Shown here: positions 19,662 to 20,801 of the stretch, piece by piece
How positions within the stretch are numbered: the stretch's first letter is position 1
Layout of the letters: every line of letters starts with the position of its first letter
Source of the DNA: Ketobacter sp.
GTDB lineage: Bacteria > Pseudomonadota > Gammaproteobacteria > Pseudomonadales > Ketobacteraceae
Length of the DNA stretch: 24,000 bases
Reading direction: 5' to 3'
Assembly: GCF_003671495.1 (NCBI RefSeq)
Contig: NZ_RCHN01000023.1
Location: forward strand, 163,296 to 187,295
Translations under genes and position numbers: made by a program
The notes under the pieces: generated by a model
Told to the model about the DNA's origin: nothing
Seen by the model: only the letters and a program-made list of their open reading frames with translations
Databases searched by the model: none

Positions 19662-19745
19662 ATCTAGCGCCTTGCTTTGGGGTCGGAGAGAAGCGCAGCG
19701 GAACGGAGGTCCCAGCCGCATAGCGGCGACAACAGCAAGTTTTTA
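19662..19745 (-). repeat. Possible divergent/degenerate attC downstream of the SIR2-like gene
   Basis: The imperfect palindrome is cttgctttggggtcgg...ccgctatgcggcgacaacagcaag-type arms. The ends are ATCTAGCgcc (compare AACTAACgcc in the family) and GTTTTTA, which overlaps the gene's TAA stop. Spacer geometry is atypical. Confidence 0.35.
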
Positions 19746-20657
19746 AGTGAAATACAGTGCATCATGCACGCTTTTTGTTAAATCCCATATTGCTTCATCA
19801 AATCCTTTTTTTACGACAGTCACACCAGTAATGCTTTTATCCTTGATCCAGTCAATTGTACTATTTGGATAAGGATCAACGATAAATAGGTTTGGGCGAG
19901 CGTTCTCAATTGGCTCCCAAATGTGTTTGTCATGTTGAATGTACTTAATTCCAACCAGAACAACTAACTTAGAAGAAGAGATAATCTCTGAATATTTTTT
20001 CTGTGTATTGGTAATCAGGTTTCGATTCACGACGACCCGTTTTCCCTCTGCATACATTGCCAAAACAGGGCTTAAGTCAGAATTTCTAGGATCTTTGCAC
20101 CATGTCATCACTTCATCGACTGTTGACACTGCCTTTGTTTCAAGACCTTCAACATATGTACCGCAACCGATCATTGTATTTCCTGATATTGTCAATCCTT
20201 TTGGAAGTTGAGGTAAAAAATTGGATGAACCATGAGGCTTTAGTAAATTAATTCCGCCACCATTAGCATTGTAATCGATACCAAAGCCATGATTAGTTAG
20301 GGACTGCTCGATCAACAGATCGTAGTTTAGCGTTACAATATTAATCCGATCTAGGCAACTCCTAAGCTTGTTGAATAAACGAACATAAGCATTATCTGGT
20401 TTCACGGAAAAGCTTGAAAGATAGCAGGCTAATTCTTTCTGTAGTGGGTTGATAACTCTGCTGTCATCCGCAACAGTCGCCATACCCGCCTCAAACCCTT
20501 CAGTTTTAAAAACTCTTTTAGAGTCATTGTTGAGGTTATAGAAAGCGCCCTTTAACTCCTCAAGCTCGCTGAATAGGTCATTTCCCAGCGGTGGGTTTCT
20601 TGGCGAGCAGCCTCCTGAGCCGTAGCTTGCACCCGCACCAAAAATTATACTAATCAG
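19743..20657 (-). CDS. Stand-alone SIR2-like (SIR2_2 family, NADase-type) protein, about 304 aa, with a non-canonical start
   Basis: TLNYDLLIEQ (catalytic Asn) and LLKPHGSSNF (catalytic His) lie in the track ORF. The same frame stays open upstream of the ATG at 20483 and encodes IIFGAGASYGSGG (the NAD-binding GAGxS motif). No ATG/GTG/TTG lies upstream of that motif. AGGAGA (20669-20664) is followed 6 nt later by CTG (20657) and 9 nt later by ATT (20654). Confidence 0.78.
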   Translation of the reverse strand: MISIIFGAGASYGSGGCSPRNPPLGNDLFSELEELKGAFYNLNNDSKRVFKTEGFEAGMATVADDSRVINPLQKELACYLSSFSVKPDNAYVRLFNKLRSCLDRINIVTLNYDLLIEQSLTNHGFGIDYNANGGGINLLKPHGSSNFLPQLPKGLTISGNTMIGCGTYVEGLETKAVSTVDEVMTWCKDPRNSDLSPVLAMYAEGKRVVVNRNLITNTQKKYSEIISSSKLVVLVGIKYIQHDKHIWEPIENARPNLFIVDPYPNSTIDWIKDKSITGVTVVKKGFDEAIWDLTKSVHDALYFT

Positions 20658-20687
20658 AGGTACTCTCCTGCTTAATGGTGACTCGTC

Positions 20688-20801
20688 AATTAACGCCTAC
20701 ATCATGGGAACACGTGGAGTGGAGCCAACTGTGGTAAAGTGCGCGCAGCGCACCACAGTTGGCGCAACGTAGCGGGCTTCCCATGCATGTGATTGTTAGC
20801 C
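20688..20801 (-). repeat. attC-like recombination site (cassette boundary between FRG and SIR2-like genes)
   Basis: Plus strand: AATTAAC-gcc-TACATCATGGGAAC...GAGTGGAGCC AACTGTGGT-N16-ACCACAGTT...GGCTTCCCATGCATGTG-att-GTTAGCC. The arms are complementary with an extra unpaired G in the right arm. Confidence 0.7.

Follow-up and report, generated by a model that had tools for sequence, protein, structure and literature searches.

Two described SIR2 proteins act in defense as single genes. AbiH from Lactococcus (a single gene, about 350 amino acids) was shown to act by abortive infection (Prevots 1996, as cited in PMC13064643), and it has been counted among the sirims (10.1101/2024.09.18.613514). 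Sole-Sir2 (about 440 amino acids, CRISPR-supervised) converts NAD+ to ADP-ribose (ADPR) in vitro, and a homologue protects E. coli against T2 and T4 (10.1101/2024.12.27.630466). In a literature search for validated stand-alone SIR2 proteins of about 300 amino acids, these two were all that we found. Here we describe a SIR2-like gene from an integron cassette of Ketobacter sp. (contig NZ_RCHN01000023.1). It lies on the minus strand of a 24,000-nucleotide stretch (the window, by which we mean the whole stretch that was analyzed), it has 304 codons, and, judging from its homologues, it very probably starts at the CTG codon at position 20657. Two things are new: a large family of minimal, stand-alone SIR2 proteins of about 300 amino acids, and one clade of that family whose CUG start codon is maintained by selection and causes systematic mis-annotation.

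AbiH and sole-Sir2 are the closest functional analogues of the Ketobacter protein, which appears to belong to neither family. Like AbiH, it is essentially a lone SIR2-like (SIRim) domain, with no partner and no recognizable sensor, and it is found on mobile elements. However, it does not match the AbiH family (PF14253) in Pfam (E ≤ 0.01) or in PADLOC, and just 1 of 56 relatives touches PF14253 (E = 0.0087). Also, AbiH is from a Gram-positive host, and no non-canonical start has been reported for it. Like sole-Sir2, our protein would be a single-protein SIR2 system, but sole-Sir2 is set apart by its description: it has its own N-terminal region of about 140 amino acids, which is the proposed sensor, and a C-terminal SIR2 domain. 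In contrast, the window's family (304 amino acids for the window protein) has the GAGxS motif among its first 11 residues and carries no additional domain.

The other SIR2 defense systems have parts that are missing here. In Thoeris, ThsA has a C-terminal SLOG/Macro domain besides SIR2, and there is an adjacent ThsB (TIR) gene; the window's cassette encodes neither, PADLOC gave no ThsA or ThsB matches, and the neighbors of the SIR2 gene are an FRG-domain gene and a 66-amino-acid open reading frame (ORF). DSR1 and DSR2 are proteins of about 1,000 amino acids with an N-terminal SIR2 domain and a large C-terminal sensor, as compared to 304 amino acids for the window protein and 292-330 for its family. 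SIR2/HerA (Gao_Her) needs an adjacent gene for the HerA helicase, whereas the SIR2 cassette has one ORF and close relatives have no recurrent neighbor. As for the short prokaryotic Argonaute (pAgo) system SIR2-APAZ (SPARSA), the window protein has only weak Aga_SIR2 matches over the NYD region (E = 1.8e-4), with no APAZ or pAgo in the cassette. Because these defining parts are missing, Thoeris, DSR, SIR2/HerA, and SPARSA are excluded. More broadly, the PADLOC, Pfam, NCBIfam, and PHROGs models that we tried do not capture the family, except for weak SIR2 matches.

The longest ORF with a canonical start runs from ATG 20483 (19743..20483, minus strand; 246 amino acids). A preliminary description of this DNA, made from the sequence alone, had pointed out that the frame remains open for 72 more codons, back to the TAG at 20697-20699, and that the GAGxS loop is encoded upstream of the annotated ATG. 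The frame is indeed open, with 71 sense codons beyond ATG 20483 (72 if the TAG is counted), and its translation contains RRVPLISIIFGAGASYGSGG. The extension reads ALIDESPLSRRVP-LISIIFGAGASYGSGG, which includes IIFGAGAS. From the TAG as far as the GAGAS loop, the frame contains no ATG, GTG, or TTG codon (the frame scan gave an empty list of starts), as had been described. What precedes the loop is AGGAGA at 20669-20664, then 6 nucleotides, and then CTG (20657-20655) followed by ATT (20654-20652). This AGGAGA-N6-CTG arrangement had been placed about 30 nucleotides past the R' box of an attC site, and the GTTAATT core does lie 31 nucleotides before the CTG. The features of the gene are:

19743..20657, minus strand: proposed true coding sequence of 304 codons, from CTG 20657 to TAA 19745-19743, for a stand-alone SIR2 protein (SIRim-type)
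20664..20669, minus strand: Shine-Dalgarno sequence AGGAGA, 6 nucleotides 5' of the CTG, with a conserved GGAG core
20655..20657, minus strand: proposed initiation codon CTG, in the column of the ATG, GTG, and TTG starts of homologues
20625..20642, minus strand: FGAGAS, the end of beta-1 and the glycine-rich NAD-binding loop (GAGxS), from invariant columns and the structural model
20481..20483, minus strand: internal ATG (Met59), the start picked by ORF and gene callers, which yields 246 amino acids without beta-1 and GAGxS
20319..20333, minus strand: TLNYD, with the catalytic-position Asn111 at 20327-20325, from invariant columns and profile alignment
20226..20240, minus strand: KPHGS, with the catalytic-position His142 at 20234-20232, from invariant columns and profile alignment
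19923..19934, minus strand: HDKH segment of G-x-K-Y-x-x-H-D-x-H-I-W, a C-terminal SIR2_2-type motif with the invariant D243 and H245

Homologues support the longer form, with GAGxS, as the real product. A word-indexed search with the 304-amino-acid form found 312 homologues, nearly all of them 300-313 amino acids long and covering 98-100% of it; those of 295-320 amino acids match it end to end. When 1.84 billion representatives were searched exhaustively with a profile, there were 3102 matches at E ≤ 0.001 and, at the stricter threshold of E ≤ 1e-30, 536 clusters (at 50% identity). Among the best 150 of these matches, almost all were 292-330 amino acids long and aligned from their own residue 1-7. 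The N-termini of homologues follow the pattern M-[IVL]-[ST]-x-[IL]-F-G-A-G-A-S, with the Met aligned to CTG 20657, and in 87 of 120 cluster representatives the first residue (Met or Val) falls precisely in that column. In a family alignment of 56 sequences, on which our calls of invariant residues rest, F6, G7, G9, A10, and S11 are invariant, as are L110, N111, Y112, D113, K140, H142, G143, S144, D243, and H245. Thus the extension is conserved at the protein level across hundreds of homologues, and the homologues do not begin at the internal methionine without GAGxS: Met59 is a conserved internal residue in them (M72 in A1). Codons 2-58 are under purifying selection that is indistinguishable from that on the rest of the gene: among relatives from the clade, the ratio of nonsynonymous to synonymous rates (dN/dS) is 0.05-0.22 for these codons and 0.07-0.15 for the rest.

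The protein almost certainly has a SIR2-superfamily fold (a sirtuin-type Rossmann fold). Structure prediction for the 304-amino-acid form had been proposed as a check, and AlphaFold2, using the 56-sequence alignment, gave a confident SIR2 fold with a predicted local distance difference test (pLDDT) score of 95.2 and a predicted template modelling (pTM) score of 0.92. In the model, residues 2-6 form the first Rossmann strand (beta-1), which is followed by the GAGAS loop and a helix (8-12), and a single domain occupies all 304 residues. When we compared the model to the Protein Data Bank (PDB) with Foldseek, the top 50 hits were all sirtuins. The best was the SIR2 protein of the SIR2/HerA antiphage complex (8wld, E = 7.6e-7, TMq 0.60). 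Similarly, the family profile matched PDB sequences of the SIR2/HerA SIR2 protein (8w9l, E = 6.7e-4), another "SIR2 family protein", and, weakly, ThsA (6lhx). The preliminary description had listed a complete catalytic set, and both TLNYD (Asn111) and KPHGS (His142) are in frame. In the profile alignment, N111 falls on N112 of ThsA (TTNYD) and on the NYD of the SIR2/HerA protein, and H142 falls on H152 of ThsA (KMHGD) and on the KLHGS of the SIR2/HerA protein. Mutation of N112 or H152 abolishes the NADase activity of ThsA. Furthermore, the C-terminal HDKH motif aligns to GYSYKDQHI of the SIR2/HerA protein. Thus the best structural and profile matches, to SIR2/HerA (Nezha) and ThsA, share GAGxS, NYD, HGS, the G-Y-S-x-x-D-x-H-I motif, and the aligned Asn and His, but they are only about 13-16% identical to the window protein.

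Because direct scans with Pfam and NCBIfam gave no match, we assigned the family from structure, profiles, and relatives. Pfam SIR2_2 (PF13289) matches 38 of 56 relatives at E ≤ 0.01 (best 3e-6), and P0089 and P0116 carry precomputed PF13289 assignments. PADLOC's SIR2 models match the window protein weakly (best 7e-6), PHROGs gave one weak match of an unknown-function class for the 304-amino-acid form, and NCBI names several relatives "SIR2 family protein". We conclude that the protein is most likely a divergent single-domain member of the immune branch (SIR2_2, or SIRim, as defined in 10.1101/2024.09.18.613514, which also reports that enrichment in defense islands is specific to that branch).

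Alternatively, the cassette might carry a housekeeping-type sirtuin (a deacylase or ADP-ribosyltransferase like CobB) as cargo, with no role in phage defense. After the SIR2/HerA protein, Foldseek does match CobB, Hst2, and SIRT2/3 (E of about 1e-6), and viral sirtuin-type deacylases match too. However, there is no invariant cysteine column in the 56 sequences, and hence no Cys4 zinc module as in sirtuins. Also, the best structural match and the only sequence-profile matches are SIR2 proteins from defense systems, the relatives match Pfam SIR2_2 rather than SIR2, and their genes lie in integron cassettes and in prophage defense hotspots; the enrichment in defense islands is, as noted above, a property of the SIRim branch. 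We consider a housekeeping sirtuin unlikely.

We now turn to the start codon. The column of the window's CTG holds ATG in homologues from Psychromonas, Photobacterium, and Enterobacteriaceae (L113, L116, L119), TTG in Vibrio sp. AND4, and GTG, at the same place behind AGGAGA-N6, in Methylomonas methanica. It holds CTG in the window and in L018/19, L022-24, L105-107, L108/109, L110, L111, L112, L006, and L026. Ten of these CTG sequences are distinct (the window, L006, L018, L022, L026, L105, L108, L110, L111, and L112), and the CTG-bearing sequences are 65-93% identical at the protein level. A GGAG-type Shine-Dalgarno sequence lies 5-6 nucleotides before the CTG in all ten. The GGAG core at this spacing is kept in 11 of 11 aligned sequences, while the flanking bases upstream vary, and further upstream the CTG sequences are unrelated or differ in frame. 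In four of them (the window, L018, L108, and L112), there is no canonical in-frame start upstream; in L108, a TAG lies only 5 codons 5' of the CTG.

The CTG codon is also more conserved than its translation requires. Synonymous sites are saturated among the clade's genes (dS > 1 for most pairs). Across the eight full-length genes of the CTG clade, there are 21 columns with invariant leucine, and just one of these, the first column, has an identical codon in all eight (CTG); the other 20 vary synonymously among the six leucine codons. Considering all invariant columns of at least 4-fold degeneracy, 2 of 79 have the same codon throughout. Because column 1 is the only one of the 21 leucine columns to be codon-identical, the constraint is on the triplet and not on the leucine, as would be expected of an initiation codon.

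In a neighbor-joining tree that was built without the first column, the CTG members form one clade, with the GTG gene of Methylomonas nested inside; the TTG lineage is sister to this clade, and the ATG lineages lie outside. This placement indicates that the CTG is old and has been retained with occasional reversion. By these sequence comparisons, CTG is ancestral to the whole clade of cassettes and is kept by selection. The AUU start of infC in E. coli is a known rare bacterial start and is part of the autoregulatory loop of initiation factor 3 (IF3). The two cases are alike in that a weak non-canonical start behind a normal Shine-Dalgarno sequence is kept by selection; they differ in the codon and in that the AUU sits inside the IF3 autoregulatory loop, whereas the SIR2 gene is not known to have a regulatory loop.

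Another explanation for a missing canonical start is that the gene is a decaying pseudogene whose start was mutated to CTG and which is no longer translated in this genome. Besides the lack of a canonical start in frame, this would fit with the gene's distal place in a promoterless array with no match to a promoter on the minus strand, with its degenerate 3' attC site (see below), and with frameshifts in three relatives. In these three, the gene is split (L005, at about 3219-4078; L006, at 6058-6791; and L026, at 4049-4740), and the breaks in L006 and L026 are both near residue 190, which suggests that some copies are decaying or that assembly errors occur at a common site. On the other hand, the CTG is common to ten distinct sequences down to 65% identity, of which eight are full-length genes of 304 codons (L006 and L026 being frameshifted). 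The Shine-Dalgarno sequence is conserved, and dN/dS is low (about 0.05-0.2) both in the first 57 codons and in the rest. Nor would a dead gene be expected to have a frozen CTG while the codons for the other 20 invariant leucines drift. Overall, a pseudogene seems quite improbable.

The preliminary description had left two choices for the start, CTG 20657 or ATT 20654, and of these the comparisons retain only the CTG. ATT is, as in infC, a known rare start in bacteria, and ATT 20654 lies 9 nucleotides from the Shine-Dalgarno sequence, which is a workable spacing. However, the second codon is ATT, ATC, ATA, or GTA among the members of the clade, where the CTG is invariant; the GTA (in L108) cannot initiate. 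Also, where other members of the family have a canonical start, it aligns with the CTG and not with the next codon. Because the second codon is not conserved, we rejected ATT 20654, and initiation there (or at ATA 20648 or ATT 20645) is very improbable. We also considered the GTG within the core site GTTAAGTG as a start that the clade might share. It is present in L022 and L105 but absent from the window, L018, L108, and L112, which rules it out. Finally, comparing the RNA fold around the start to shuffled sequences gave no significant structure that would mask or expose the Shine-Dalgarno sequence (z = +0.9), which is unpaired in the minimum-energy fold.

The SIR2 gene, read from CTG 20657, occupies a single-gene integron cassette of its own, as had been proposed: it has a core-bounded attC site and one ORF. 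Its homology to the 93%-identical L018 begins 39 nucleotides 5' of the CTG, at the core site's GCGTTAA, and ends precisely with the stop codon. The upstream attC hairpin (115 nucleotides) has a predicted DNA fold of -30.1 kcal/mol (z = -3.3 versus shuffles), and its core lies 31 nucleotides from the CTG. An attC repeat, D1, is shared by positions 20775-20799, 21683-21707, and 23350-23374. GTTAAGY cores are also found 30-40 nucleotides upstream of the gene in L002, L003, L004, L006, L018, L022, L105, and L112. In relatives, the TAA stop codon lies inside a CTTAAC box (R''-type) and is followed by an attC of about 60 nucleotides (L105, L106, L108, and L112). L105 and L106 have an identical cassette followed, after G|TTA, by different next cassettes, which is direct evidence of cassette mobility. 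The surroundings are:

23312-24000, plus strand: ccdA/ccdB pair, opposite to the other cassettes; ccdB reaches the end of the window
22336-23235, minus strand: CD-NTase of a cassette for a type I cyclic-oligonucleotide-based antiphage signaling system (CBASS) (PADLOC cyclase, 4.8e-132)
21704-22336, minus strand: Cap15-type two-transmembrane (2TM) effector of the same CBASS cassette (Pfam Cap15_CD_rec; PADLOC, 4e-96)
20820-21641, minus strand: FRG-domain gene (PF08867, 9.5e-11), PADLOC candidate single-gene system PDC-S15
20688..20802, minus strand: upstream attC, whose R' core GTTAATT (20694-20688) is the 5' boundary of the SIR2 cassette
19655..19742, minus strand: 3' flank with an imperfect attC-like palindrome, which ends in GCTAGAT (19668-19662) and not in a GTT core
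19376-19576 and 18902-19333, minus strand: two small ORFs, members of the minus-strand array

The array region (18.8-24 kb of the window) is about 40% GC, as compared to about 58% for the rest. One of its cassettes (21704-23235) encodes a complete two-gene type I CBASS and has attC sites at about 23255-23375 and 21640-21710. Given the orientation of the array, any intI would lie beyond position 24000, outside of the window. A reversed ccdA/ccdB pair like this one usually marks a sedentary chromosomal integron that is stabilized by toxin-antitoxin (TA) cassettes. Where the low-GC array meets the 58%-GC chromosome, there is a gene for an HNH endonuclease (HNH_5, 6.6e-16; 18100-18657, plus strand), and the chromosomal flank (1-18000) includes rtcR/rtcB, recG, a LysR regulator, and a VasX-type toxin of the type VI secretion system (2270-5278). 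Elsewhere, the GTG orthologue from Methylomonas methanica (L020; CP002738, around 3.82 Mb) lies among ParE/RelB TA pairs, a NERD protein, and a Tse2/Tsi2 ADP-ribosyltransferase pair. We found no integrase within 6 kb of it, and these surroundings may be an integrase-less cassette cluster.

Integron arrays are documented as reservoirs of low-cost defense genes: a preprint (Darracq et al. 2025) and a review that covers it along with a second study (Kieffer et al. 2025) describe a low-cost "biobank" that is silenced by distance from the cassette promoter. The Ketobacter cassette resembles the defense cassettes described there, as it is a small, promoterless, single-gene cassette in a sedentary-type array with CBASS and ccdAB. 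A translational brake by a conserved CTG start is not part of that model. Nor is a SIR2 cassette of this family mentioned in the Darracq preprint (0 occurrences of "SIR2") or in the review of both studies.

The preliminary description had suggested that the SIR2 protein might depend in trans on the neighboring FRG gene (20820-21641), which would make it the effector of a two-cassette system with FRG or another cassette. The FRG gene is directly upstream and matches the PADLOC candidate PDC-S15, and a distant branch of the same SIR2 family (27-30% identity) does have a conserved partner (described below). However, an attC site lies between FRG and SIR2. Furthermore, when we compared the FRG, Cap15, and CD-NTase proteins and the two small downstream ORFs to 119 loci of the family with tblastn, there was no match, so FRG and the SIR2 family do not co-occur in these loci. 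The close relatives have unrelated neighbors that differ in every case (AbiV-HEPN, Thg1, RDD, LysR, NERD, hydrolases, or prophage lysis and terminase genes). When we clustered neighbors across the close family (at least 38% identity), they recurred only where the same prophage had been sampled repeatedly. A partnership with FRG or another cassette is thus highly improbable, and the other suggestion, that this is a SIR2 protein with no sensor domain or conserved partner, agrees with the one-domain model and with neighbors that differ everywhere.

In the distant branch, an 80-amino-acid zinc-ribbon gene (CxxC...CxxCG) lies 51-66 nucleotides from the SIR2 gene at 11 loci (L049, L050, L053, L055, L058, L066, L069, L075, L076, L077, and L087). 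It is upstream of SIR2 at ten of these loci and downstream in L049, and the small protein has no Pfam or PADLOC family. Together, the two genes may make up a SIR2 system that has not been described before, in which the small protein could serve as antitoxin or sensor. The window's cassette lacks a zinc-ribbon gene and has no space for one, as only 36 nucleotides separate the core site from the CTG.

The close family is also found in prophages. Homologues from Enterobacter and E. coli (about 39% identity) are single genes in lambdoid prophages, with the lysis genes on one side and the small terminase on the other, and a homologue from Klebsiella (48% identity) is a single gene that is flanked by gpA/DinI and the portal gene in P2-like prophages. 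The P2 gpA-gpQ locus has been shown to be a defense hotspot (PMC9122126). Uncharacterized SIR2 genes have been listed in the P2 and P4 hotspots, where the systems reported as validated are not SIR2 (Rousset 2022). Comparing the SIR2 protein to 50,697 genomes of isolated phages by tblastn gave no match, plasmids gave one distant match (Halorubrum), and the enterobacterial variant is present in just 1 of 5426 complete E. coli genomes. In these searches, then, the family appears to be carried by prophages and integrons and not by sequenced virulent phages or plasmids.

In databases, the unusual start has led to erroneous gene calls. The entries for the window protein and its 93%-identical relative (P0003 and P0007) are both 246 amino acids long, and 16 of the 120 cluster representatives (about 13%) are either truncated at the 5' end, without the NAD-binding loop, or artificially extended. 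Public calls are cut to internal Met or Leu codons for P0003, P0007, P0013, P0016, and P0017 and are extended to fortuitous upstream starts for P0002, P0004, P0005, P0008, P0009, P0012, P0015, and P0024. The upstream starts that callers chose were the GTG of the integron core site (L022 and L105) or a fortuitous codon. Among the truncated entries is an NCBI "SIR2 family protein" of 264 amino acids from Vreelandella aquamarina, without the GAGxS loop. It is extremely improbable that the annotated ORF, which begins at ATG 20483 and would give a truncated SIR2-like protein lacking GAGxS, is the actual product: it is the sole ORF with a canonical start and is what public gene calls use for the window protein and P0007, but its first residue is the conserved internal Met59, the 58 residues that it lacks hold beta-1, the invariant FGxGAS loop, and three helices (all with pLDDT > 90), their codons are under purifying selection, and no Shine-Dalgarno motif precedes 20483 (the sequence there includes gggtttgaggcgggtATG).

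What might such a protein do? We propose that the Ketobacter gene is a promoterless integron cassette for a 304-residue, single-domain SIR2 protein of the immune branch, which would be initiated at CTG 20657, 6 nucleotides past AGGAGA, and not at ATG 20483. Together, the CTG start and the distal position in a promoterless array would keep a potentially toxic NAD-consuming enzyme at a very low dosage. In E. coli, initiation at CUG is about 1-2% as efficient as at AUG (range 0.02-3%; Hecht et al., 10.1101/063800), and because of this low rate, we think that limiting the dosage is the likely role of the CTG. A low copy number also fits the "low-cost biobank" model that has been put forward for sedentary integrons. 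The protein alone would then act as an effector of abortive infection or superinfection exclusion and would degrade NAD+ once triggered, with sensing perhaps taking place within the SIR2 domain, its inserted small subdomain, or its oligomeric state. The effector role is inferred by analogy with ThsA, DSR, SIR2/HerA, sole-Sir2, and AbiH. We regard a role in defense as probable, and the chances that its chemistry is NAD+ depletion as roughly even. The proposal as a whole, a stand-alone immune-type SIR2 cassette with a CTG start that is probably an abortive-infection NADase at low dosage, is in our view somewhat better than an even bet.

Several observations weigh against this proposal. Canonical starts occur in or near the same clade (GTG in Methylomonas and in P0011, and M in P0006, P0010, and P0014), so the CTG is tolerated and not obligatory. 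A promoter scan of the coding (minus) strand found no promoter-like site, which implies that expression in this genome may be negligible. The 3' site in the window folds no better than shuffled sequences (z = +0.8) and has the core GCTAGAT, so the 3' recombination site of the cassette is degenerate or uncertain, and the cassette may be frozen in place. The frameshifts in three relatives suggest that some copies decay. The window protein itself has no Pfam, NCBIfam, or AbiH match at E ≤ 0.01. And because sirtuin folds also deacylate or ADP-ribosylate, NAD+ depletion is not the only possible chemistry.

A more speculative idea is that the conserved CUG start is itself the missing sensor, with infection raising the translation of the SIR2 NADase via start codon selection. 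Near-cognate initiation is policed by IF3 and depends on competition for 30S subunits. Phage takeover leads to decay of host mRNAs, altered fidelity of initiation, and freed ribosomes, and could thereby bring about a sharp rise in the CUG-initiated NADase. This is a long shot, but if it were true, then a SIR2 protein without a sensor would become a suicide effector that is controlled by start codon selection.

The finding bears on annotation and on the question of how SIR2 effectors without sensors are controlled. Because gene callers truncate or extend about 13% of the representatives, domain-based defense finders will miss or misjudge SIR2 genes with CTG starts. The clade is also a clear natural example, supported by sequence comparisons, of a bacterial initiation codon CUG that has been conserved. 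The close relatives that we examined (at least 38% identity) are single genes in integron cassettes and prophage hotspots, and the family is a tractable model for how a SIR2 NADase without a sensor or a partner is controlled. For the integrons that carry it, the conserved CTG suggests that "biobank" genes may be silenced both in transcription, through their position, and in translation, through the strength of the start codon.

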